Of a stretch of DNA of 64,000 nucleotides, positions 6,357-29,257 are shown in pieces. Each line of letters begins with the position of its first letter. The stretch's first letter is position 1. This stretch comes from Pseudomonadales bacterium (GTDB taxonomy: Bacteria > Pseudomonadota > Gammaproteobacteria > Pseudomonadales > JAHRWD01), in contig JARGPR010000001.1 of assembly GCA_029210125.1 (NCBI GenBank), forward strand, positions 326,812 to 390,811, in the 5' to 3' direction. The position numbers and the translations under genes were made by a program. The notes beneath the pieces were generated by a model, which was not told the DNA's origin, searched no databases, and worked only from the letters and a program-made list of their open reading frames with translations.

Positions 6357-8078
6357 ATGATTGATATTGAATCCATACTGCAAAATAAATTCCCTCAAAT
6401 GAGCATAAGTAAAGGGTGGTTCTCCCGTTCATTGCTTTACTTGCTAAGAAAGGTATTGAGAGAGCAGCAAATTAATCAATTTATTGAGCAAAACAGCGGT
6501 GCTGAAGGCGTTGATTTTATCGACAAAATATTCGCGAAATTCAATATAGGTTATACGCTTTCCAGCCAGGATCGTCTGAAAATACCAGAAAGCGGTGCGT
6601 TACTCATAGTGGCTAATCACCCGATTGGATCCATGGATGGCCTGGCTCTTATGCGGCTTATTTCAGAAGTACGGCCAGATGTTAAAGTCGTTGTAAATGA
6701 TTTGCTTGCCTATATTGAACCACTGCGCCCAATGATGCTGCCGGTTGATAATATGGGGAATAATACCAGCAAGCATGATTTAAAGAAGTTATACAGGGCG
6801 ATAAAAAATAATGAAGCGCTAATTTTTTTCCCCGCCGGTGAGGTTTCTCGCATGAACCCGTCCGGTGTGCGTGATAGCAAGTGGAATAGTGGTTTTTTAA
6901 AGATAGCCCAGCGTTTTAACGCACCTGTTTTACCTGTTCATATCGGCACACGAAACTCCTGGCTATTCTACTTTCTATCAACACTCAACAAGAGTTTTGG
7001 AACACTCCTCCTGGTTCGGGAAATGTTCAATAAGCAAAATACGATTTTCCCTATAAAAATAGGCGATATTTACGGTGGCGATTTGATCGGTAAAAAAGAT
7101 AAAACAGAAGAGTTAAAAGTGAGTGAAATTCGCAGCTCCGTCTACCGGCTCAATAAGCGCTCAAGCAACAAAAAAACAAAACTTAACAATTCACCCAATA
7201 CGATTTATGCACTACCAGAAAGCAAAAAACAGTTAAAAAAAGAGCTGCTCGAATCCCAAAAGTTGGGTCAATTTCGTGATGGTAAACTCATTTATCTGTA
7301 CGATTATTTTGAAAACTCCGCAGTCATGAGAGAAATTGGCCGCCTGCGAGAGGTCACCTTTCGGGCGGTAGGCGAGGGTAGTGGTCGGTGCCGTGATCTG
7401 GATACTTATGACCGCTACTATCGGCACATTGTGTTGTGGGATGACAATGATCTTGAGATTGTCGGCTCGTACCGTATTGGTGAGTGCCAACCTATGGTAA
7501 CCAAAGGCGGGTTGGAAAGCCTGTATGTAGACTCGCTGTTTGAGCTAAATGATTCGTTTCTGCCCTATATAGAACAGGGCATTGAGTTAGGTCGAAGTTT
7601 CGTGCAACCGCAATATTGGGGCAAGCGTAGCCTGGATTACCTCTGGCATGGCATTGGCGCCTACCTGAGCCAATACCCAGAGGTGAAATATATGTTTGGT
7701 CCTGTTTCCATCTCTAATGATTATTCAGAGCAGGCTAAACAAAAACTGGTGCGCTTTTATGCAGGCTATTTTGAAGACCAAAACGGTTTAGCCACGGCTA
7801 GAAACCCCTATCCCATCACGGAAAAATGGAAACCGGGGAATGATTTCCGGGAAGATTTTGTGGCACTGAAATCAAGTTTGAAGCAGTTGGGTTACTCAGT
7901 CCCCACGTTATTCAAACAGTACACCGAAGTTTGTGAGCATGAAGGCGTGCGATTTATCGATTTCAATGTGGATGCTGATTTTGGAAATTGTGTGGATGGT
8001 TTAATTCTGGTGGAGGTGGATAAACTTAAACCCGCCTCAATTAAACGTTATATGAGTAATCGACTGGATGTAGCCTGA
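6357..8078 (+). CDS. Bifunctional lysolipid O-acyltransferase (PlsC-like) + GNAT N-acyltransferase (OlsB-like), OlsF-like aminolipid synthase candidate
   Basis: 573 aa. The N-terminal half carries NHPIGSMDG and FPAGEVSR acyltransferase blocks. The C-terminal half carries REVTFRAVGEG..YRHIVLWD, typical of OlsB/hemolysin-like GNATs. Confidence 0.55.
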   Translation: MIDIESILQNKFPQMSISKGWFSRSLLYLLRKVLREQQINQFIEQNSGAEGVDFIDKIFAKFNIGYTLSSQDRLKIPESGALLIVANHPIGSMDGLALMRLISEVRPDVKVVVNDLLAYIEPLRPMMLPVDNMGNNTSKHDLKKLYRAIKNNEALIFFPAGEVSRMNPSGVRDSKWNSGFLKIAQRFNAPVLPVHIGTRNSWLFYFLSTLNKSFGTLLLVREMFNKQNTIFPIKIGDIYGGDLIGKKDKTEELKVSEIRSSVYRLNKRSSNKKTKLNNSPNTIYALPESKKQLKKELLESQKLGQFRDGKLIYLYDYFENSAVMREIGRLREVTFRAVGEGSGRCRDLDTYDRYYRHIVLWDDNDLEIVGSYRIGECQPMVTKGGLESLYVDSLFELNDSFLPYIEQGIELGRSFVQPQYWGKRSLDYLWHGIGAYLSQYPEVKYMFGPVSISNDYSEQAKQKLVRFYAGYFEDQNGLATARNPYPITEKWKPGNDFREDFVALKSSLKQLGYSVPTLFKQYTEVCEHEGVRFIDFNVDADFGNCVDGLILVEVDKLKPASIKRYMSNRLDVA

Positions 8079-9812: not shown

Positions 9813-10149
9813 AGGTATAGATTCCTTTATTTGATTATCCCTGATATAGAAATGATTATGGGCTACGCGTTATTTATTGTTGTTATTAGCTAAATCCGGT
9901 GCCATCTCCCAGTACTTGAATGAGTACCTGGATATGCCTGCCAAAAGAATAAACACCCCATACTCAGATGTCCATACAGGCCATATTTGTATGTGCCGGG
10001 TATTGATCAAGGTCAATTTACGCAAATACTCGTGAGCTGCGTGATCTTGGGCTGGAGGCTCCCATCAGCCCGTTGCATAGTCCGACGCCTTGTTTTCCCT
10101 TACACTGGTTGGCCATCAAGCCCAAATAACAATAACAGGGAGTTACCCA

Positions 10150-10923
10150 ATGAGTGACGAACAACCGCTAATACTGACCCGTGAAGATCACCTCCTAACC
10201 ATAGAAATAAACCGGCCACCGGCCAATGCCATGAACCTGGCGGCATTCTGTGCGCTGGAAAAAGCGCTAGATGAAGCTGAAAACGAGCGCAACGTACGGG
10301 TGATTATTCTTACCGGCAGTGGCGTCAAAGGCTTTTCAGCGGGTATGGATCTGTCCGATCGATCCGGCGCTGATGTTGTCACCCTTAAAGCCCAGTCCGT
10401 CTGTAACCGGATCGAAGCGATGTCGAAACCCGTGATCGCAGCCATCAACGGCTACGCGCTGGGCGGCGGTTGTGAAATCGCAATCTCCTGTCACTATCGA
10501 TTTATGGTCGATGCAGAAAAAGCCATTATTGGCCTACCAGAAACAGAACTGGGCGTAATGCCTGTTTGGGGCGGAACCCAACGCCTGCCACGACTTGTCG
10601 GGCGCTCCAAAGCCACCGAGATGATCATCCTCAGTCAGCGCATTGGCGCACAGCAAGCTAGTAACATTGGTTTGGTAGACAAGGTATGTAGCCGCGAAAC
10701 ACTAATGTCAGACGTCCGCGAATTTGCAAATGCGCTAGCAGCACGGCCACCCCTGGCGGTTCAAGCCATAATGCGCTCCATTCACACCGGTATCAATCAA
10801 GGCATAGCTGCCGGACTACAACAGGAGCTAGATCAGGTCAAAACCCTCAGCGGAAGTAAAGATGCATTTGAAGGGAAAACCGCATTTTTCGAGAAAAGAA
10901 AACCGGTGTTTACTGGGGAATAG
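10150..10923 (+). CDS. Enoyl-CoA hydratase/isomerase (crotonase family)
   Basis: Crotonase blocks (FSAGMDL, INGYALGGGCE.A, E..LG..P..GGTQRL). AGGGAG lies 7 nt before the ATG at 10150. Confidence 0.85.
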   Translation: MSDEQPLILTREDHLLTIEINRPPANAMNLAAFCALEKALDEAENERNVRVIILTGSGVKGFSAGMDLSDRSGADVVTLKAQSVCNRIEAMSKPVIAAINGYALGGGCEIAISCHYRFMVDAEKAIIGLPETELGVMPVWGGTQRLPRLVGRSKATEMIILSQRIGAQQASNIGLVDKVCSRETLMSDVREFANALAARPPLAVQAIMRSIHTGINQGIAAGLQQELDQVKTLSGSKDAFEGKTAFFEKRKPVFTGE

Positions 10924-11208
10924 CGTATTCCTGGTTGGTGTGTTGCTCGATCCGGTGGGTGGTGGTTTATGGATTGGGATTATCGAGGCACTGGTTAGAT
11001 ACCGGGTTGTAAATATTCCCATATTTCGAGAGTTGGACTGACAGCAAACCACCAGAATGGTTATTCCATGTTTATATGTTTAATATCACAATACATGGAA
11101 AACCGATCCACCTATATCACCCCAATACGTGGAAAATCGTTTCCGCTTATTAACACTGTTATGAAAATAATATTTAAATTTACCAATATAATACTTAGGA
11201 GATATAAG

Positions 11209-11532
11209 ATGTTTAAAATTCGGACGTTATTAGGGGCTTGTGCATTGCTAGTTTCAAGTCATTCATTTGCTTGGGTTTCAGGAAGCGGAATGACAGTGGA
11301 GCAAGTGATGGTTCATGAAGAAGGTATTGGAAGAGATTACTTTGTCGCTTACTTCAAAAAAGACACAACAATATTCCGCTGTTACGTTAGCAATACTGAA
11401 ACTAGTACAATTTCTCTTATTTTGGCAATGCATATGTCAAAAACACCCGCCCAGGTTCATTGTCACGATAGCGATATGGCCATCGGGAGTTTCAGTGCTC
11501 ACAAACTTCATCGAATAATTACAAACATTTAG
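11209..11532 (+). CDS. Small secreted hypothetical protein
   Basis: AGGAG plus 8 nt precedes the ATG. Signal peptide MFKIRTLLGACALLVSSHSFA. First gene of the AT-rich islet. No family recognised. Confidence 0.4.
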   Translation: MFKIRTLLGACALLVSSHSFAWVSGSGMTVEQVMVHEEGIGRDYFVAYFKKDTTIFRCYVSNTETSTISLILAMHMSKTPAQVHCHDSDMAIGSFSAHKLHRIITNI

Positions 11533-11589
11533 TCTAATTTGCGTGGTATTCATAACAATGTGTTGCAAACGACATTTTCTGCTCCGCCG

Positions 11590-11790
11590 TTTTTGGTGTA
11601 TTCGCTTCGCTCAGTTTACACCAAAAAAAGCTCCACAAAAAATGCGTCTGAACACGGCGTTGAGGTGCGCTTCGTTCAACAGCGTCGGTACCCGAAAAAC
11701 AACAAGGGGTTCGAAGAGACCAACTGGAGTGTTATACCTAAAAAACAGGTACAACACTCCAGTTGGCACCTCAACGCCGGGCCGTTATGT
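11590..11790 (+). repeat. Highly structured non-coding element (three nested or adjacent inverted repeats)
   Basis: Three pairings: 11590-11600/11617-11627 (11 bp), 11655-11667/11767-11779 (13 bp, perfect), and 11720-11739/11747-11766 (20 bp, one mismatch, 7-nt loop). CATAAC (11551-56) and GTTATG (11784-89) bracket the element. Confidence 0.55.
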
Positions 11791-11805
11791 TTTCAAGGAG
11801 ATATC

Positions 11806-13551
11806 GTGCAAATAATCAAGAAGTCCCTTGATGTCTTTTTTGCAGGTGACATGCAGGTTGCGGTAGTGAAAGGGAAGTGGGGAGTCGGCAAAACGTATTT
11901 TTGGAATGCATACATTAAAGATTACATAAAGTCATCCCAATGTGAGCAAGTTGCATATAGCTACATATCTCTCTTTGGTAAAACAAGCCTTAAAGATGTA
12001 AAGCAATCTATTTTTCATTCGTCAAAGCCAATAAAGTCGGAAAGCGTAGTTGATGATAGTTTTGATAGCTCTTTTGAAGAAGAAAGCAAAATATTTAATC
12101 GCCTTCCGTGGATACGAGATGCTGTAGATAGGTCTAAAAGAAATGCACCACTTCTCAGTTGGCTAACTAAATTCTCAAAAGATGCCCCATTCTTGAAGCA
12201 ATACTCAACGCTTATTGCGTCCATGGAATATGGAATGGTTTGTAATTATGTGGTCTGTATAGATGACATTGAAAGGAAGAGTGAGGCACTTACAGTTAAA
12301 GAAGTCATGGGGCTGGTGGATGAGCTCGCCCAAAGAAAATCATGTAAGGTTATTCTCGTATTTAATGAGAAGTCACTTGATAGTGATAAAGACAAAGAAG
12401 ATTTCAACAAGTACAGAGAAAAGGTTGTAGATATAGAGCTTAACTACGATCCACCGTATGATGAGAATTTACAATGTGTAATTTCATCAGACTCGGCGTA
12501 TTACCTAAAAGTACTAGGGTTAACAAAAGAACTAAATATTAAAAATATACGTGTAATAAAGAAAATAAAGTGGGTTATTGATGAATTCTGGGGAATTGTA
12601 AAAGAACAAGAACAAAGGCTTATCGATGAATGGCTAACGCATGTTGTATTGTTTTGTTGGTCATACTATAAATCTGACGATGCTCTTCCTTTTGAGTTTA
12701 TTCAGGAACAGTTGCATGGAAATTCTTGGCTTTCGATATTGTCTGATGAAGAAAAGGAGGAAGATGAGAATACAAAAAAATATAAGTCAATTGCGACAAA
12801 CTTATCTCTTGGAAGTGCCATATATGATGAAGAGATTATAGCAATATTAAATCATGGTTTTTTCGATAAGGAAATGTTAAAAGAAAAAATATCCAAGATT
12901 TCTAGAGATATAGAATCTGATATTACAAGAGAGGCACTTTCCAAAGCATGGGATATCTATTCAGACTCATTTAAAGATAACCTTGAAGAATTCAAGTCAG
13001 AACTTCGAACTATAATAAATAGCGATATTGATAAAATAAACTTAAATGATTTTTCTTCTGCAATTGATGTGTTAGAGGAGTACGGAGAAGATGTAACGGA
13101 ATATATCGAAGAATACGTCAAAGTACATGTGGATACGCTAAAAAATATCGACCCAAGAGACTCTTGGGGCATAAGGAGAATTAGACACGCAGGTTTGATC
13201 GAAAAAATCGATAACTTACGAGAGCAATCAAAAAGCATGACTATCGACGAAGTCGCTTTAAAAATTGCCATAAATAGTGGATGGAACCCTGAAGATATTG
13301 AGTTCCTAGGATCATTGAGTATAGAAGATTATTTTAAATGGATGATGAGTGGTCCAGAGGATATAACCACAAAAATAAGAGGTGGCCTTCTAACATTTAG
13401 GAACCTCCAAACATCAAGCGAAGAAGATCGCATCAAATATGTAAGAATAACCACGAATGTCGTTGAGGCGCTTAAGAAAGTAGCAGCAACAAACGATCTT
13501 AATAGAAAGCGCGTCAAGTATATATATGAAGTGGACACAGAGAAAACATAA
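11806..13551 (+). CDS. KAP-family P-loop NTPase
   Basis: Walker A GKWGVGKTYFW and Walker B VVCIDDIERK fit the KAP pattern GxWGxGK[ST] / DDLDR. AGGAG plus 5 nt precedes the GTG at 11806. The upstream 267 nt of the track ORF is the structured repeat. Confidence 0.7.
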   Translation: MQIIKKSLDVFFAGDMQVAVVKGKWGVGKTYFWNAYIKDYIKSSQCEQVAYSYISLFGKTSLKDVKQSIFHSSKPIKSESVVDDSFDSSFEEESKIFNRLPWIRDAVDRSKRNAPLLSWLTKFSKDAPFLKQYSTLIASMEYGMVCNYVVCIDDIERKSEALTVKEVMGLVDELAQRKSCKVILVFNEKSLDSDKDKEDFNKYREKVVDIELNYDPPYDENLQCVISSDSAYYLKVLGLTKELNIKNIRVIKKIKWVIDEFWGIVKEQEQRLIDEWLTHVVLFCWSYYKSDDALPFEFIQEQLHGNSWLSILSDEEKEEDENTKKYKSIATNLSLGSAIYDEEIIAILNHGFFDKEMLKEKISKISRDIESDITREALSKAWDIYSDSFKDNLEEFKSELRTIINSDIDKINLNDFSSAIDVLEEYGEDVTEYIEEYVKVHVDTLKNIDPRDSWGIRRIRHAGLIEKIDNLREQSKSMTIDEVALKIAINSGWNPEDIEFLGSLSIEDYFKWMMSGPEDITTKIRGGLLTFRNLQTSSEEDRIKYVRITTNVVEALKKVAATNDLNRKRVKYIYEVDTEKT

Positions 13552-13632
13552 CTATTACATACACTCGGACAGTAAAAAGCGCCGCTCGTTCCTCGCTCTG
13601 CTTTTCACTGCCGGTGATGTAGAGCGTTAGTC
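13546..13632 (+). repeat. attC-like imperfect palindrome (candidate integron cassette recombination site)
   Basis: ACATAAC (contains the KAP stop codon), 4 nt, arm 13557-13580 pairing with 13600-13620 (20 bp, three 1-nt bulges all on the 5' arm), 5 nt, then GTTAGTC. Confidence 0.45.
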
Positions 13633-13653
13633 GGCGCATATAAAAAAAATACA

Positions 13654-14418
13654 ATGAATAGCATAATTTTTAAATACATGCCGTTTAGAGAAGAATTTTT
13701 TGAGAATCGATGGTTAAGGTTTACTCCTCGACTATCGCTTAATGATCCATTTGAAGTTAGGCCTTCATTTTCACAACATGCCGAATTTGTACACCGAGTA
13801 AATGGATATGGTGATTCTGTTGAATCTGTGATTCAAGAAATGGAAAGAAATCAATGCCTAGTATTAAAGGGTATCGCGATTCAGGACTTCGATATTTATG
13901 GCATTCTTTCGCTGACGGAGAAAAATGACAATCTGCTAATGTGGTCGCACTATGCAAGCGAACATGCCGGAATGGTGATTGGGTTTGATTCTAACCATGA
14001 TTTCTTTGATGCTACAAAGTCTGAAAACCAATATTTGAGAGAATGCGCAAATGAATACATCGGTGTACTAAAAAGAGTAAAGTATTCGAAATATCGTAAT
14101 ATGTCCGGTCGTTCTCTAAATGAATACTTTTACCTAAAGTCGAATGATTGGTGGACCGAGCGAGAAATACGGTATGTGCTTCCTATTGCAGAGGCAGATG
14201 AAATAATACATACAGAAAATAACGAGACTATGGCATTCTATGTTGTTCCTCCAGACGCAATAGTTTCAATTACTTTGGGTATGCGGATGGAAGGAAAGTC
14301 AGCGGAATTGGTGAAAAGAATCATAAGAGATAGGTGTGAGCTATCTCACATTAAAATTTTTCAAACGAAAATGTGTAATGAAACATTTAACCTGGTCGTT
14401 GAGTCAATTCAGGCTTAG
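13654..14418 (+). CDS. DUF2971-family protein
   Basis: 254 aa. IFKYMPF..LRFT....LNDPFE, LMWSHYA..HAGMVIGF and W..EREIRY match the DUF2971 pattern as remembered. Confidence 0.6.
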   Translation: MNSIIFKYMPFREEFFENRWLRFTPRLSLNDPFEVRPSFSQHAEFVHRVNGYGDSVESVIQEMERNQCLVLKGIAIQDFDIYGILSLTEKNDNLLMWSHYASEHAGMVIGFDSNHDFFDATKSENQYLRECANEYIGVLKRVKYSKYRNMSGRSLNEYFYLKSNDWWTEREIRYVLPIAEADEIIHTENNETMAFYVVPPDAIVSITLGMRMEGKSAELVKRIIRDRCELSHIKIFQTKMCNETFNLVVESIQA

Positions 14419-14559
14419 TATCAAGTTTGAAGAAAAATGAGGTCAGGTCTTTCCATGCCACATTAGCTATGGTGTTTAGCCTAATGGGCGCTCCTAAGAT
14501 ATAGAGTATTTAGGCATAACAAAGCGGCTTCAGGCCGACAGTTTTTACGCGAGTGAAAC

Positions 14560-14901
14560 ATGAAAATCGTAAATATCGAAAATTCAGAACATTATAAATG
14601 GGGCGAAGACTCTGATGGTTGGCACCTACTTAAATCTGATGGTTTGAGCATTATTGAAGAAAATGTGCATCCTAATGAGAAAGAGGAACGACATTACCAT
14701 AATGATTCGCAGCAGTTCTTTTATGTATTGTCAGGTGTTGCCCACCTTGAAATGTCGGGTGATATATTTAAGGTTAGTGCTGGTAGTGGCATCCACGTTC
14801 CAAGAAAAAAGCCTCACCAATTAATGAATAATGGCACCGTGAACTTACGTTTCTTAGTTATATCTCAGCCAAAAAGTCATGGCGATAGAGTAAACGTATA
14901 A
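14560..14901 (+). CDS. Cupin-domain protein
   Basis: 113 aa. Metal-binding motif region E.HYH...Q.FYVLSG and P...PHQL.N. The stop TAA lies inside GTATAAC. Confidence 0.7.
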   Translation: MKIVNIENSEHYKWGEDSDGWHLLKSDGLSIIEENVHPNEKEERHYHNDSQQFFYVLSGVAHLEMSGDIFKVSAGSGIHVPRKKPHQLMNNGTVNLRFLVISQPKSHGDRVNV

Positions 14902-14939
14902 CAAGCGACAGTGATTTAAAACAACCCATTTCCCTGCAA

Positions 14940-15195
14940 TTATTGATTCATTTGCCACTCCTGTTTGTTGCGAACCATTGTGTTTAATATCGTTTTTTGT
15001 GCGATGGGCTTCTTGAAGAATTCATCAAATTAAACCTAACAGACGCCACACCTCCAAAACCCGCTGAGCGGCGCGTTATTCTTCTCATCAGCGTGGCTAC
15101 CAAATGCTATCGCATTCCAGTTAGCTACAGCATGTAACGTTTCAGAGGTGCTTTCTCTGAGCGACCGCTTTCCCAGACCGTACAGGCTTGATATG
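14940..15195 (-). mobile_element. IS110-family transposase 3' remnant (decayed, with stops)
   Basis: The reverse strand reads ..FDEFFKKPIAQKTILNTMVRNKQEWQMNQ*. This is colinear with the C-terminus of the IS110 copy at 28.3-29.3 kb (..TILNKMVRNDQEWQMNH). Weaker ESG..R..YM similarity lies further upstream. Confidence 0.55.
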
Positions 15196-15296
15196 AGCCG
15201 AACGATGGCTTAATCAATCCACTACGGTTGCCCTTGCCTTGGGAGTGATTTAACCTTTTCACAAATACTCAATCTAATAACAATAAGGAGATGTAT

Positions 15297-16487
15297 ATGG
15301 ATATTGCTTATAACCCGGAATATGAAGCGTTTAGAGTTGAAGTGCAGCGGTTTCTCGAAGAGAACAAAAGCAAAGCACCGGCGGGGCATCGCGGTCGCGG
15401 TAGGCCCACGGCTGAAGAGCAGGCCTGGCAGCAACTGTTGATCAAACATGGTTATGCCGCACGTACCATACCTAAGGAATACGGTGGCTATGGCGCTGAA
15501 CCGGATATTCTTAAAAGCCATATCATCGCTGAAGAGTTCGCAATTGCAGGGGTAAAACCAGGTCATAATGGCGATGACCGTTTGGTGCCAGTTGTGCTTG
15601 AAATTGGTACCGAGGAGCAAAAGAAGGCTCTAATTGGGCCTACTATTCGGGGCGAAATGATGTGGTGTCAGGGCTATTCAGAACCTGGCTCCGGTTCTGA
15701 TTTAGCATCCCTTTCAACCAAAGGTGTGCTGGAAGGGGATCAGTGGGTGATCAATGGCCAGAAAATCTGGACCTCCGGTGCGCAACATGCGGACATGTGT
15801 TTTTGTCTGGTTAGAACAGAACCCGACGCGCCCAAGCACCAGGGTATCAGCTACCTTATTTTTCCGATGGATACACCGGGTATTGAAGTACGCCCACTGG
15901 TCACTATGACCGGCGAAGCGATTTTTAACGAAACATTTTTTACCGACGTGCGTATACCTGCGGATGGCATCATTGGAAAACGTGGTGAAGGGTGGTTTGT
16001 GGCGAACGCAACACTCAAGCATGAGCGCGGTAGTTTGGGTGATCCAAACCAGACCGAGCGTCGTTTCCGTTTGCTTGTTGATCTGATGAAAAATGAAAAG
16101 GTCGACGGCACACCATTAATCGAAATTCCAAGTTACCGTGATCGGCTATTACGATTGCAGGCCCGTGTATTCTCCATGAAATATAACGGCATGCGAATTC
16201 TCACCGCCTACGCAAAGGATGAGGAGCCAGGGTTGCCACGCTGGATCGTAAAGCTGCAGGGCTGCGAATTGAATCACCAGCTATCTGCACTGGCAATTGA
16301 TGCAATGGGCGAGCTGGGTGTGTTGTATGAAGACAGCCCCTATCTGCGCGATGAAGGGATGTGGCAACAAACCTACATGCTTGATCTTGGCTTGATCATT
16401 GGCGGTGGCACCGCGCAAATTCAAAAAAATATGATTGGTGAGCGGGCCCTCGGGTTACCTAAAGAACCAAAATACACACAGAATTAA
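15297..16487 (+). CDS. Acyl-CoA dehydrogenase family protein (candidate alpha subunit of a heteromeric ACAD)
   Basis: ACAD blocks (WCQGYSEPGSGSD, W.I.G.K.WTSGA). The C-terminal IIGGGTAQIQKNMIGERAL has G where MCAD-type enzymes carry the catalytic Glu. Confidence 0.85.
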   Translation: MDIAYNPEYEAFRVEVQRFLEENKSKAPAGHRGRGRPTAEEQAWQQLLIKHGYAARTIPKEYGGYGAEPDILKSHIIAEEFAIAGVKPGHNGDDRLVPVVLEIGTEEQKKALIGPTIRGEMMWCQGYSEPGSGSDLASLSTKGVLEGDQWVINGQKIWTSGAQHADMCFCLVRTEPDAPKHQGISYLIFPMDTPGIEVRPLVTMTGEAIFNETFFTDVRIPADGIIGKRGEGWFVANATLKHERGSLGDPNQTERRFRLLVDLMKNEKVDGTPLIEIPSYRDRLLRLQARVFSMKYNGMRILTAYAKDEEPGLPRWIVKLQGCELNHQLSALAIDAMGELGVLYEDSPYLRDEGMWQQTYMLDLGLIIGGGTAQIQKNMIGERALGLPKEPKYTQN

Positions 16488-26790: not shown

Positions 26791-27156
26791 TGATCTTGCC
26801 CCAATAGAACGAAAACATGAAATTTCATGCAGCTAATCGCTTATATTTCGTCGGTGAACAATACCCGATCCCTGAATGCAGCCGCTTTCGATAGTAAAAA
26901 TCATTAATATAACGAGCTAAAACATACTTCAGTTCTTCGCGTGATTGAAAGTGGATTCCTCGGACTAATCCCGCCTTTAAGGTGTGGAAGAAGGATTCCA
27001 TATGCGCCTTGTCGGTACATTTACTGAGTCAGACGGGCTACGCGTTTTAACTTTGAATTCATTGGAGTACAGCCAGGCCTTTCTAGGTTTTGTGTATTTA
27101 GGCATGGGACGCCTCATCAGTTAGATATGGGTGTCCGCGTGAAGCGGGGCAAGTCA
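26791..27156 (-). mobile_element. IS3-family (IS407-like) internally deleted remnant with both inverted repeats
   Basis: IRs are TGATCTTGCCCC (26791) and TGACTTGCCCC (reverse complement at 27156). OrfA start MPKYTKPRKAWLYSNEFKVK is fused to the OrfB end CTDKAHMESFFHTLKAG..RLHSGIGYCSP. A 4-bp TAGC duplication flanks it. Confidence 0.7.
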
Positions 27157-27266: not shown

Positions 27267-27354
27267 GCATAACGCCGCCATCAGCCGAATATTTGTAGTG
27301 TATGAGCAAAGCTAAGTAGCGATTGATTTGTCGGCTGCATGGTATTTGTTAGGA
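27267..27354 (-). repeat. attC-like imperfect palindrome downstream of the LysE gene
   Basis: The minus strand reads TCCTAAC (contains the LysE stop), 5 nt, CCATGCAGCCGA, 42 nt, TCGGCTGATGG, 4 nt, GTTATGC. The extra G is on the 5' arm. Confidence 0.4.
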
Positions 27355-27969
27355 CTTAAATGCTACGTAGCTTCCGACGCCTACCATAAGACCACCGGCT
27401 ATTTTTTGAGGGGCAGTACCAATTATTTTCTGCTGCATATACAAAGCAAATTTTGATGCAAAAGCAGCGTATAGAATTTTGACAGAGCCAACACTTACAA
27501 CGGTAATAGCAACTACTAGCCCGTAATCAAATGGGGAGGCAGAACTGAAGTCAATGAAAAATGGGAAAAGGCTAGCGTAGAAAACTATTGCTTTTATATC
27601 GCCAAGAGTCAGAAAAAATCCTGTGGAGAAGCTGACCAGAAGACCTCTTTTCCCTTGATCGATTTCTTGTAAGAAAAGTTGTTTGCCTTTTGCTTTTAGT
27701 AGTGCAAGCCCAAGCCATATCAAGTAAAGACCACCAGCTATTTTTAGGATAGTAAAAAAGCCACCCATTAGCCCAGCTACGGCTTCAAGGCCGAGTATAA
27801 CCAGTAGTACGAATAGCAAGTCACCCAATACGACTCCAATTGATACAGCGATACCGTTTGAAACACCGGCTGTCGCTGAGCGAGCGACAACAAGCGCCAC
27901 ACTTGAACTCGGCAACGCTGCCAAACTGACCATAACTGCAAACAGCGTCAGTGCTTGTAGGAAACTCAT
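27349..27969 (-). CDS. LysE/RhtB-family amino-acid exporter
   Basis: 206 aa, 6 TM helices, with the LysE-type N-terminus (..PGP equivalent region) and overall pattern. Confidence 0.75.
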   Translation of the reverse strand: MSFLQALTLFAVMVSLAALPSSSVALVVARSATAGVSNGIAVSIGVVLGDLLFVLLVILGLEAVAGLMGGFFTILKIAGGLYLIWLGLALLKAKGKQLFLQEIDQGKRGLLVSFSTGFFLTLGDIKAIVFYASLFPFFIDFSSASPFDYGLVVAITVVSVGSVKILYAAFASKFALYMQQKIIGTAPQKIAGGLMVGVGSYVAFKS

Positions 27970-28265: not shown

Positions 28266-29257
28266 TTAACAAGCGAGGGCGTCATTTTTTAACACTTGAA
28301 AGAGCGTCAAGCTCGAATGTAGCAAGGGTGAGATATGAATACAACTACCGTAACTAGCTTCAGAAACCAGGAAACACACATCGGTATAGATGTTGGAAAA
28401 TGATGTTTGGATGCCTCGGTTTTTGAGCTCGATTTACTTTGAAGGGAAGGGAATAACCCGGAGGGGGGCTGAACGCTTAATAACGGCTTTAAGGCGCTAT
28501 AAGCTCACGCGCGTATTGGTTGAAGCTACCGGTGACATTGTCTAACCGATCCAGGTGGGGCAATTTGCAAAAGCCCAGGGCATACTCGCTAAAACGGACA
28601 ACGTTGATGCAAGATTTATTGCGATGTTTGGCAAAGTCCTTCAGCTTGATGATCGCGTGTTACCCGATAAGAAAATAGGACTTCTTAGAGACTTGGTTGC
28701 CAGAAAACGGCAGTTGAATGAAAACAGAACGCAACAAGCGCCAACATAAAGCCCCCCCAAATGTGCTAGCGGCTTCTAACAGACGCCTGCTTTAGCTACT
28801 TGATAAAGAAGTTGCGTGGATTAACGGCAACTGGCGATAAGAATCGCCGAGGTCACCGAGTGCAACGAACCTATCAAATACTCAGTTCTGTTCCAGGTAT
28901 TGGTGATGGTGTTGCATTCACATTATTGGGTGAGCTACCCAAACTGGGAAAGCTATCCAATCGTAAAGTGGCGGCGCTGCGTGGTCTAGCCCCCCTTTGA
29001 TCGCGACAGCGGTCAAATGAAAGGAAAGCGGCGTATCAAAGGAGGCAGACCACCCATACGAACAATACTGTATTTGGCGATGCTCTTTGCTATACAGCAC
29101 AACTCAGTCATGAAGAGGTTTTTTATGAAAAATTCGTAGCTCAGGGTAAGCACAAAAAAGTAGCTATCACCACCTGCATGAGAAAGATGATGACGATCTT
29201 AAATAAGATGGTTCGCAACGATCAGGAATGGCAAATGAATCACAGTCGCTTGTATAC
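28266..29257 (+). mobile_element. IS110-family insertion sequence, transposase degraded by stops and frameshifts
   Basis: From the ATG at 28335: MNTTTVTSFRNQETHIGIDVGK*.. Later frames give QFAKAQGILAKTDNVDARFIAMFG, SSVPGIGDGVAFTLLGELP and TILNKMVRNDQEWQ. Inverted TTAACAAGCGA / TCGCTTGTATA flank it. Confidence 0.7.

Follow-up and report, generated by a model that had tools for sequence, protein, structure and literature searches.

Does the palindrome that overlaps the stop codon of a KAP-family NTPase gene in an uncultured marine Pseudomonadales genome constitute an integron attC site, and is the gene in front of it a mobile cassette? The initial annotation of the window (the whole 64-kb stretch of DNA analysed here) had proposed both from the letters of the DNA. 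We put a probability of about 90% on the reading that positions 13546-13632 are an integron attC at the 3′ end of a mobile 1.84-kb cassette (11785-13626) containing a 581-aa KAP NTPase. The features on which this reading centers are the following.

13546-13632, plus strand: attC of the KAP NTPase cassette (sequence, fold, match to the class-1-derived model R2, homologues with compensatory changes)
11806-13551, plus strand: KAP-family P-loop NTPase ORF of 581 aa, a candidate defence gene (Pfam PF07693; PADLOC PDC-S49)
11785-13626, plus strand: KAP NTPase gene cassette of 1842 bp (complementarity of its own ends; same start in other loci)

Integron attC sites are imperfect palindromes of 57-141 bp with the general form R″(RYYYAAC)...R′(GTTRRRY). 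At the KAP gene, the R″ box ACATAAC (13546-13552) contains the stop codon TAA (13549-13551) and is followed by TATT (13553-13556), a 5′ arm (13557-13580), a 19-nt loop (13581-13599), a 3′ arm (13600-13620), AGAGC (13621-13625), and the R′ box GTTAGTC (13626-13632). Pairing by hand and folding yielded the same stem of 20 bp with one A13574.C13606 mismatch and three single-base bulges (A13561, T13565, and A13569), all on the 5′ arm; TAAC of R″ pairs with GTTA of R′. These elements had been described in the initial annotation, and each was found exactly where it had been placed. The canonical attC parse gives R″ (13546-52), the UCS TATTA, L″ CAT (13558-60), the extrahelical A13561, and a stem with VTS in the 5′ half, and L′ ATG (13617-19), the UCS TAGAGC, and R′ (13626-32) in the 3′ half, with a predicted crossover between G13626 and T13627. 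Both R boxes are one base off the consensus but stand in the right polarity (AAC 5′, GTT 3′) and are able to pair. The L boxes are set off from them by an unpaired UCS of 5 and 6 nt, close to the expected length of about 5 nt, and this UCS/L-box geometry is identical to that of the aadA1, arr-3, and imp-4 sites when these are read alike. The extrahelical bases, which act as the strand-selection signal, are confined to the R″/L″ arm.

In known attC sites (59-base elements of the arr-3, imp-4, aadA, and Vibrio VCR type), R″, UCS, L″, extrahelical base, stem/VTS, L′, UCS, and R′ are arranged and spaced as they are here. The likeness extends to the AAC/GTT polarity, the overlap of R″ with the stop codon, the length (87 nt, within 57-141), the restriction of extrahelical bases to one arm, the complementarity of the cassette's own ends, and a model score like that of held-out true sites. 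The site differs in having three single-base bulges at even intervals (positions 16, 20, and 24), where two are usual, and in its sequence, which is unrelated to that of clinical attC sites and falls within an 87-nt family from environmental arrays.

Folding of both strands, which had been suggested as a check, gave −15.9 kcal/mol for the plus strand (z −1.96 versus shuffles) and −17.3 kcal/mol for the minus strand (z −2.30). Because these energies are only modestly better than those of shuffled sequences, the hairpin alone is weak evidence for an attC, and the weight of the call rests on the covariance model, the covariation among homologues, and the cassette-boundary tests. A stable stem-loop directly after a stop codon might also be a plain transcription terminator or an mRNA-stabilising hairpin between genes that has acquired AAC/GTT ends by chance, given that RYYYAAC...GTTRRRY alone is a short and common motif. 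However, no T-run follows the stem on either strand, so that the GC-rich stem plus T-run of an intrinsic terminator is absent, and a terminator scan made no call at 13546-13632. Such a hairpin would also leave unexplained the 7/7 match of the gene's far 5′ end to R″, the homology breaks that fall exactly at GTT, the occurrence of the 87-nt family behind unrelated genes, and the attC-model score, all of which are presented below. We regard this explanation as very improbable.

The attC call had been made dependent on a covariance model search, for which a model (R2) was built here from 13 bona fide class-1 integron attC sites only; R2 is our own model and not the curated attC model of IntegronFinder, and its E-values are rough. 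It matched 13546-13632 in full length, at the exact coordinates, and on the plus strand only, with 21.0 bits (E 0.0017 for 128 kb searched). True attC sites that had been held out scored 16.0 (qnrVC4), 25-30.6 (arr-3), 30.6 (dfrA14), and 36.9 bits (qacG2), which places our site inside the range of true attC scores, at its low end. The top background match in the window reached 15.1 bits, and this only through R-box shortcuts, and the control loci L001, L003, and L004 (fetched loci are denoted by L numbers) gave at most 10.8 bits. A first model, R1, in which the variable loop of the attC sites had been removed, was dropped, as it missed the true long sites of arr-3, imp-4, and qacG2 and produced R-box-only shortcuts; since R1 itself was at fault, its failure on 13546-13632 was set aside. 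An Rfam scan of the 64-kb window returned no match, which says nothing for or against an attC. Inspection of 27-29.4 kb, a region also singled out in the initial annotation, revealed one good attC and a fragment, among IS remnants.

27267-27354, minus strand: separate attC (R2, 27.9 bits, E 1.6e-5) at the 3′ end of a LysE-family transporter ORF (27349-27969, minus strand; Pfam LysE)

About 25 homologues of the 87-nt site were found behind at least 12 unrelated ORFs, always within attC arrays. In 23 distinct homologues, 94.3% of the stem cells were paired and 13 cells carried double-sided compensatory changes, a degree of covariation that was equalled by 0 of 500 shuffles; the family consensus has its bulges at the same three positions as A13561, T13565, and A13569. 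Every family locus with enough upstream sequence has the end of an ORF within about 20 nt of R″. A sequence family that is about 90% identical across many contigs could also represent a REP- or MITE-like dispersed palindromic repeat of the host genome, the alternative that the initial annotation had itself raised. The 64-kb window, however, holds a single copy, with none in core intergenic regions, and the metagenomic copies lie in arrays of attC sites (68 matches in 118 kb) with whose other members they are co-oriented. Conservation stops at GTTA, beyond which the downstream sequences diverge, and one copy (L112) is the attC of the first cassette beside an integron integrase. A dispersed repeat is, in our estimation, even less probable than a terminator. 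The L112 integrase is 48.6% identical to IntI1 and is named "integron integrase" by the sources; integrases also adjoin KAP-bearing arrays in Cycloclasticus, Oceanospirillum maris, Nitrotoga, and Psychromonas. The tie between the attC family and an integron integrase is thus found in relatives and not in the window itself, and a lack of intI and cassette arrays among relatives, which would have counted against the annotation, is not the case. A 328-aa tyrosine recombinase beside the array of L019 was rejected as an integron integrase, since its likeness to IntI1 is confined to the C-terminal catalytic motif and its gene is located within a type I restriction-modification cluster.

The boundaries of the KAP cassette were defined by the complementarity of its ends. 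The first base of the cassette is the T that follows G11784 of the upstream R′ (GTTATGT, 11784-90), and the last is G13626; the 5′ end of the cassette, GTTATGTTTT (11784-11793), is the perfect complement of its own R″, AAAACATAAC. The match is 7/7 beyond the GTT/AAC triplet, compared to 1/7 for the adjacent R′. This own-end rule was validated on 29 cassettes, bona fide class-1 ones included, in which the own R″ was complemented at 6.0/7 positions and the adjacent R′ at 3.0/7 (p 1.6e-6). The ribosome binding site AAGGAG and the GTG start codon at 11806 are close to the left edge of the cassette, only about 20 nt from it. The version of the gene in the ORF list (670 aa from TTG 11539) was over-called; the real gene encodes 581 aa from GTG 11806, and a database record holds exactly this protein at 581 aa. 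The ORF matches PADLOC PDC-S49 with an E-value of 1.7e-25. A promoter scan gave fewer promoter-like sites than in shuffles and no evidence for a cassette promoter.

The same unit was found in other arrays. KAP genes in L018, L019, and L020 are 86-89% identical to the one studied here and have different neighbours, and the gene in L021 is 77% identical; in all four contigs, the cassette begins at G/TTATGTTTT(C/T)AAGGA behind unrelated upstream sequences. Two of these four contigs are large attC arrays. Those of L019 and L020 comprise 6-9 attC matches of up to 44 bits, include homologous 87-nt attC sites (21.5 and 21.7 bits), and place the KAP cassette next to GmrSD and AbiTii cassettes. Among 80 loci with KAP homologues fetched from genomes and MAGs, about 15 contained attC matches, with an integrase alongside in 4. 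The gene had been proposed to be, or to have been, an integron cassette, and the match of its own ends together with the same start in four other contigs bears this out. Genes of this KAP NTPase family (PADLOC candidate PDC-S49) recur as integron cassettes; a literature search found no paper linking KAP NTPases to integrons.

The KAP cassette is part of a larger array, which lies between two core genes and is composed as follows.

10090-10923, plus strand: left flank, enoyl-CoA hydratase, core gene (Pfam)
11150-11164, plus strand: fixed left junction of the array, TTAACACTGTTATGA, with the crossover between G11158 and T11159
11159-11659, plus strand: first cassette (break of homology with L002 at 11164)
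11209-11532, plus strand: ORF of the first cassette, 107 aa, signal-peptide-like N-terminus (no Pfam match)
11550-11665, plus strand: attC of the first cassette (R2, 24.4 bits, E 1.7e-4)
11660-11784, plus strand: ORF-less 125-nt palindromic element between the first attC and the KAP cassette (repeat search)
13627-14432, plus strand: DUF2971 cassette (Pfam; PADLOC PDC-S31; homology with L016 and L017)
13654-14418, plus strand: DUF2971 ORF, candidate defence gene PDC-S31 (Pfam, PADLOC)
14503-14973, plus strand: 3′-end remnant of an isochorismatase gene, then a cupin ORF, then a divergent attC (homology with L015)
15291-16487, plus strand: right flank, acyl-CoA dehydrogenase, core gene (Pfam; blastn)

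The attC of the first cassette comprises R″ TCATAAC, the UCS AATGT, L″ GTT, an extrahelical G, and a long VTS in its 5′ half and L′ AAC, the UCS ACGGC, and R′ GTTGAGG (11659-65) in its 3′ half; the own-end complementarity of this cassette is 6/7, versus 1/7 for the adjacent R′. The 125-nt element that follows has outer arms of 14 bp (18 bp in L002) and an inner hairpin of 20 bp and ends in the R′ that is used by the KAP cassette. It is an odd perfect palindrome that reaches only 9.1 bits with R2, a score at which the model does not accept it as an attC. Downstream, the DUF2971 cassette starts at the G/TT of the 13546-13632 site. Its homology with L016 and L017, where it has other upstream neighbours, begins at 13624, two bases before GTT and behind a different attC. 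Like the KAP unit in L018-L021, it occurs in different arrays with G/TT junctions. Its own attC is decayed, with GGCTTAGTATCAAGTT at the position where L016 and L017 carry GGCCTAACAAGTT and a full attC. The cupin ORF (14560-14901) follows isochorismatase in L015 as well; its stop codon is embedded in GTATAAC (14896-14902), as had been noted initially, and its attC extends from this R″ to R′ GTTGCGA (14967-73) but is divergent and was not detected by R2. Two further candidate sites were discarded: a "collapsed attC" at 14517-14553 (GGCATAAC...GTTTTTA), considered as the DUF2971/cupin boundary, is homologous to the isochorismatase 3′ end that precedes cupin in L015, and GTTTAGCCTAA...TTAGGCATAAC at 14474-14523 has the polarity GTT...AAC, the reverse of an attC. 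IS-like ends are present at 14974-14993. None of the fetched loci contained a further copy of the left junction, of the 125-nt palindrome, of the first cassette, or of the right-hand junk.

Between the stop codon of the co-oriented enoyl-CoA hydratase gene and the start of the array lie 235 bp, and the conserved right flank resumes at 15143 (blastn); the GC content of the island is 34-40%, compared to about 47%. In a relative (L003) this slot is empty, and the acyl-CoA dehydrogenase follows the enoyl-CoA hydratase after 117 bp. In another (L002) the slot is filled differently: homology with the window stops at 11164, beyond which each genome has a different first cassette, and the block common to both, which includes the 125-nt palindrome, is 99.7% identical, with flanks of 87-96% identity. 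A tblastn search of the 64-kb window with IntI1 and three environmental IntI proteins yielded only noise, with neither intI nor a remnant of it beside the array. No tyrosine recombinase was found in the window. The arrangement of a complete integron, with intI and attI adjoining the array, is thus absent. Because there is no integrase in 64 kb and a second attC is located at 11550-11665, so that two model-detected sites (11550-11665 and 13546-13632) are 1.9 kb apart (a CALIN being at least two attC sites within 4 kb with no integrase nearby), the array is of the CALIN type, as had been anticipated. It is a four-to-five-cassette integrase-less array between the enoyl-CoA hydratase and acyl-CoA dehydrogenase genes of an uncultured marine Pseudomonadales MAG.

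With one attC decayed, one divergent, and IS remnants present, the array is probably eroding in part. This raises the possibility that the KAP site is a fossil: functional at the time of the cassette's arrival, it would now belong to an array that decays as a relic in a host without an integrase, its hairpin serving at most as a 3′ structure of the transcript. Consistent with such a history are the lack of an integrase or an intI remnant in the window, the decayed attC of DUF2971 and the cupin attC below detection, the truncated isochorismatase gene and neighbouring IS-like ends, and an IS fragment within the array of L002. However, the 13546-13632 site is intact, with all boxes, bulges, and pairing kept as in relatives from live arrays. 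Because the block around it shows 99.7% identity between two lineages with 4-13% divergence in the flanks, a recent transfer is indicated, and since the first cassettes of the two lineages differ at the same G/TT and each fits its own R″, integrase action at the locus is suggested. We therefore consider a relic rather unlikely.

The left junction offers a different perspective. TTAACACTGTTATGA resembles an attI simple site, and its sequence would fit an attI-like simple site as well as a collapsed attC; upstream of it is a pair of 21-nt direct repeats (11088-11108 and 11122-11142). TTAAC-ACT-G/TTATGA and these repeats might form an orphan attI-like site, a live docking site at which an integrase encoded elsewhere inserts and swaps cassettes. 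This proposal, which would account for the different first cassettes at the same G/TT and for the 99.7%-identical KAP and DUF2971 block, is tentative, and we hold it to be doubtful to a similar degree. If it were true, the slot would be a population-level store of candidate defence cassettes that is serviced in trans, and cross-phylum cassette flow would be implied; the closest relatives of the integrases seen with the attC family are named in deltaproteobacterial-type MAGs.

For the preferred reading, an attC at the end of a mobile KAP cassette, recombination can be outlined from what is known of integrons. The single-stranded bottom (minus) strand of an attC folds into a hairpin, the paired R″/R′ and L″/L′ boxes are each bound by the integron integrase (IntI), and the extrahelical bases on the R″/L″ arm steer IntI to the bottom strand. 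Strand exchange would then occur at the G/TT step of GTTAGTC and, with the upstream R′ (G11784/TT) as partner, would release a circle in which GTTATGTTTT is paired with AAAACATAAC and whose junction is predicted to read ...GATGTAGAGCG joined to TTATGTTTTCAAGGAG.... Present-day mobility of the array would probably need IntI in trans.

The attC call, correctly made from raw sequence alone, is upheld by the model score, the non-REP distribution, and the integrases beside the same attC family in relatives. The 13546-13632 site is a well-supported example of a known element type, not a new type, and does not change our knowledge of how integrons work. The array resembles the CALINs described by Cury et al. 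2016 (PMC4889954) in having at least two attC sites within 4 kb, co-oriented cassettes unrelated to resistance genes, no integrase nearby, and IS remnants; in that study, one in four complete integrons contained IS elements, and IS-linked routes were listed as possible origins of CALINs. In contrast to those CALINs, the array is confined to one defined slot of the chromosome, which a relative has empty, and two close relatives have different first cassettes at the same G/TT junction. The comparison is direct evidence that cassettes turn over at a locus without an integrase. An uncultured marine Pseudomonadales genome is thereby shown to contain a clean CALIN that is documented by comparison with relatives.

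Phage-defence systems encoded by mobile integrons have been reported (bioRxiv 10.1101/2024.07.02.601719), and chromosomal integrons have been described as defence biobanks (PMC12614218). The cassettes studied here are like those in being single-gene, defence-candidate cassettes (PDC-S49 and PDC-S31), but they lie in an uncultured marine MAG and in an array with no integrase, and the defence role of KAP and DUF2971 is a candidate one only. The mobility pattern of KAP and DUF2971 (PDC-S31) speaks for an anti-phage or other accessory role without proving it, and the KAP NTPase and DUF2971 genes constitute two ready candidates for defence screens.

The initial annotation had read the 87 nt at 13546-13632 (+), at the 3′ end of the KAP NTPase gene, as an integron attC site. 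Its description of the sequence was exact, with every element in place. The ACATAAC at the start contains the stop TAA of the gene upstream and is followed by a 4-nt spacer; arms of 24 nt and 21 nt form 20 bp with a single A.C mismatch around a 19-nt loop; the single-base bulges (A13561, T13565, and A13569) lie only in the 5′ arm; and a 5-nt spacer and GTTAGTC complete the element. The hairpin was formed by both strands upon folding, the minus strand (-17.3 kcal/mol) being slightly more stable than the plus strand (-15.9 kcal/mol). Since these energies are only about 2 standard deviations better than those of shuffled sequences, the stem-loop alone constitutes little proof. A transcription terminator was excluded, as the hairpin has no T-run and as this reading is contradicted by all of the junction evidence.

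Rfam gave no match anywhere in the window. Thirteen full-length sites were used to build an attC covariance model (R2). Class-1 integrons found in PLSDB plasmids with the attI1 sequence as the query served as the test set; nine annotated class-1 arrays were taken, and attC limits were set by constrained folding. A first model (R1), made from loop-trimmed sites, was dropped because it missed true long attC sites. The R2 consensus comprises the R box (7 bp), unpaired spacers, the L box (3 bp), an extrahelical base, and a 6-bp stem, with the variable loop treated as an insertion. Held-out attC sites scored as follows:
qacG2, 36.9 bits
dfrA14, 30.6 bits
arr-3, 25.0 and 30.6 bits
qnrVC4 (Vibrio VCR type), 16.0 bits

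Searching the entire window on both strands with filters off resulted in three full-length matches:
27267-27354 (-), 27.9 bits, E 1.6e-5
11550-11665 (+), 24.4 bits, E 1.7e-4
13546-13632 (+), 21.0 bits, E 0.0017, with limits identical to those in the initial annotation

The remaining matches reached at most 15 bits and used the R boxes alone, and the maximum in control loci without arrays was 10.8 bits. The alignment of 13546-13632 displayed canonical geometry (R″ ACATAAC, spacer TATTA, L″ CAT, extrahelical A, stem, L′ ATG, spacer TAGAGC, R′ GTTAGTC). IntI1 and three integron integrases from the environment, used as tblastn queries, retrieved no integrase in the 64 kb and no intI remnant beside the array. 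By the published definition (PMC4889954), a CALIN has two or more attC sites but lacks a neighboring integrase; thus, the array is a CALIN.

Exact protein matches put the window on a 519-kb contig from an uncultured Pseudomonadales MAG. The site is part of a low-GC island (10924-15290; 34-40% versus about 47%) bounded by an enoyl-CoA hydratase on one side and two acyl-CoA dehydrogenases on the other. The island genes, all on the plus strand, encode a 107-aa secreted-looking protein, the KAP-family NTPase, a DUF2971 protein, and a cupin. In PADLOC, the KAP protein matched candidate system PDC-S49 and DUF2971 matched PDC-S31. The KAP gene is recorded as 581 aa from GTG 11806; a 670-aa ORF (11539-13551, from TTG 11539) was rejected as an over-call through the first attC and a palindromic element. 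The content of this chromosomal slot varies among relatives: one (L003) carries only 117 bp between hydratase and dehydrogenase, and another (L002) carries a small membrane ORF, a glyoxalase, KAP, DUF2971, an IS fragment, and two small ORFs. The array comprised these elements beside the KAP and DUF2971 cassettes:
Fixed left junction, TTAACACTG↓TTATGA, crossover G11158↓T11159
11159-11659 (+), first cassette, with its own attC at 11550-11665
11660-11784, ORF-less 125-nt perfect palindrome that provides the R′ of the KAP cassette (R2 9 bits, not accepted)
Isochorismatase gene stump, 3′ of the KAP and DUF2971 cassettes, then cupin with a divergent attC at 14896-14973 (+)

Beyond 11164, where homology to L002 ends, the two genomes differ in their first cassette; in each, the eighth base of this cassette is matched by the cassette's own R″. 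The left junction (11088-11164) is laid out like an attI simple site, TTATTAAC-ACT-GTTATGA, and two 21-nt direct repeats lie upstream of it, 34 nt apart, with no integrase gene or remnant alongside. The 125-nt element (L002 4490-4642) is free of bulges and flanked by a G↓TT junction on each side; its outer arms are perfect, with 14 bp in the window and 18 bp in L002, and they enclose a 20-bp hairpin. A further ORF-less mini-cassette precedes it in L002, its ends GTTAGTCGGCGC…GCGCCGACTAAC being 12-bp complements, and similar ORF-less palindromic spacers are found 5′ of the KAP cassette in two further contigs (L019 and L020). The cassette block (11655-14432) shares 99.7% identity with L002 4507-7284, compared to 87-96% for the flanking core genes; this difference points to a recent exchange of cassettes between the two MAG lineages.

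The DUF2971 cassette starts at the G↓TT of the 13546-13632 site; homology to two contigs with DUF2971 homologues (L016 and L017) begins at 13624, and in those contigs a different cassette and attC precede it. Its own attC is decayed in the window (GGCTTAGTATCAAGTT, versus GGCCTAACAAGTT and a 26-bit attC in L017). This remnant (14410-14432) is mutated and truncated, with R″ GCCTAAC changed to GCTTAGTATC; other arrays have it intact (in L017, at 2466-2582), and the IS fragment of L002 is inserted at the same point. The neighbor of the cupin differs in a further contig (L015), and about 170 bp of unassigned sequence separate the cupin attC from the conserved flank, which continues from 15143.

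Recombination in attC occurs at G↓TT, so that the six final bases of an arrayed attC belong to the next cassette. The 5′ end of a cassette is therefore expected to be complementary to its own R″. Across 29 cassettes, including bona fide class-1 cassettes, the cassette's own 5′ end scored 6.0/7 beyond the triplet, versus 3.0/7 for the adjacent R′ (p 1.6e-6). The KAP cassette 5′ end, GTTATGTTTT (11784-11793), matched its own R″ region, AAAACATAAC (13543-13552), at 7/7, versus 1/7 for the adjacent R′ (GTTAGTC…). KAP homologues with 86-89% identity (L018, L019, and L020) and 77% identity (L021) lie in cassettes that all start G↓TTATGTTTT(C/T)AAGGA and are preceded by unrelated sequence, which in L018 is a canonical 60-nt attC (23.1 bits). 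In L019 and L020, both long arrays with 6-9 attC matches each (best, 44 bits), KAP precedes a homologous 87-nt attC (21.5 and 21.7 bits, respectively), after which come GmrSD cassettes, not DUF2971. These arrays (L019 107-15157 and L020 370-13326) hold many defense-type cassettes (GmrSD twice, NucS-like, AbiTii, and radical SAM), and the end of the L019 array adjoins a type I restriction-modification cluster, which includes a separate tyrosine recombinase of non-integron type.

Scanning metagenomes for AACATAAC…GTGATGTNNNGCGTTA yielded 29 loci, of which 27 were true homologues. With the sequences from the window, L019, and L020 added, the metagenome copies amounted to 23 distinct 87-nt sequences, about 90% identical. 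No metagenome copy was preceded by a KAP gene; the family was placed behind at least 12 unrelated ORFs (e.g., for a 178-aa GNAT-like protein and for proteins ranging from 143 to 846 aa). Every metagenome copy lay within a co-oriented attC array (68 R2 matches in 118 kb), and sequences diverged 3′ of GTTA. The other attC sites of these arrays were dissimilar to the 87-nt family. Stem cells were paired in 94.3% of cases, versus 36-57% with slid partners; double-sided changes occurred at five pairs, and 0/500 shuffles matched the observed covariation score. In one locus (L112), the family attC sits on the first cassette, whose start GTTATGTTC is complementary to its own R″ GAACATAAC, beside a divergently oriented integron integrase (48.6% identity to IntI1; domains Phage_int_SAM_4 and Phage_integrase). 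The closest named relatives of this enzyme, which carry the label integron integrase, come from Thermodesulforhabdaceae and deltaproteobacterial MAGs, in a phylum other than that of the window's host. On this evidence, the family acts like an attC family rather than a REP element, and its distribution excludes membership in a REP or MITE family.

Other sites were observed as well. The top-scoring attC of the window (27267-27354) lies behind a LysE-family transporter ORF (27349-27969, -), whose stop its R″ overlaps; no matching GTT 5′ boundary was found for this cassette. IS remnants surround it (IS3-type rve fragment, 26825-27001; IS110-type fragments, 28555-29000). At 29213-29257 (-), the cupin attC recurs in shortened form (GTATACAAGCGACTGTGATT…GTTGCGAACCAT), adjoining a frameshifted IS110-family transposase pseudogene. 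This copy shares about 20 nt 3′ of R′ with the cupin attC (14896-14993, +; 86% over 50 nt), which looks like the footprint of an attC-targeting IS of the IS110/IS1111 kind, mostly deleted at the cupin site. In a class-1 integron on a Pseudomonas juntendi plasmid (L006), two bona fide clinical cassettes bear collapsed attC sites (7640-7660 and 10997-11016) that consist of R″-spacer-R′ only, GCCTAAGTCAAACGTTGGGC and GTCTAACTCAAGCGTTAACC. Thus, hairpin-deleted attC remnants exist in real arrays.

An alignment of KAP homologues was scanned against one genome per species, which gave 80 loci; about 15 of these had R2 attC matches, often immediately 5′ or 3′ of KAP. Full-length IntI homologues (44-46% identity to IntI1) stood beside KAP-bearing arrays in a Cycloclasticus MAG, Oceanospirillum maris, and a Nitrotoga genome, and a partial IntI (40% identity), cut by the contig end, stood beside the array of a Psychromonas MAG. 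The analysis shows the architecture, R2 score, compensatory changes, own-end rule, and junction positions, and it supports the original reading. The copy at 13546-13632 may still be recombined in this host; the one rival that survives is a fossil site, its structure intact, within an array that is eroding. The element at 13546-13632 is an attC site, and the CALIN to which it belongs carries candidate defense cassettes. We found no paper that ties KAP NTPases to integrons, and this particular cassette is accordingly new. Both CALINs and integron defense cassettes have been described (PMC4889954; bioRxiv 10.1101/2024.07.02.601719; PMC12614218); the kind of element is thus already known.
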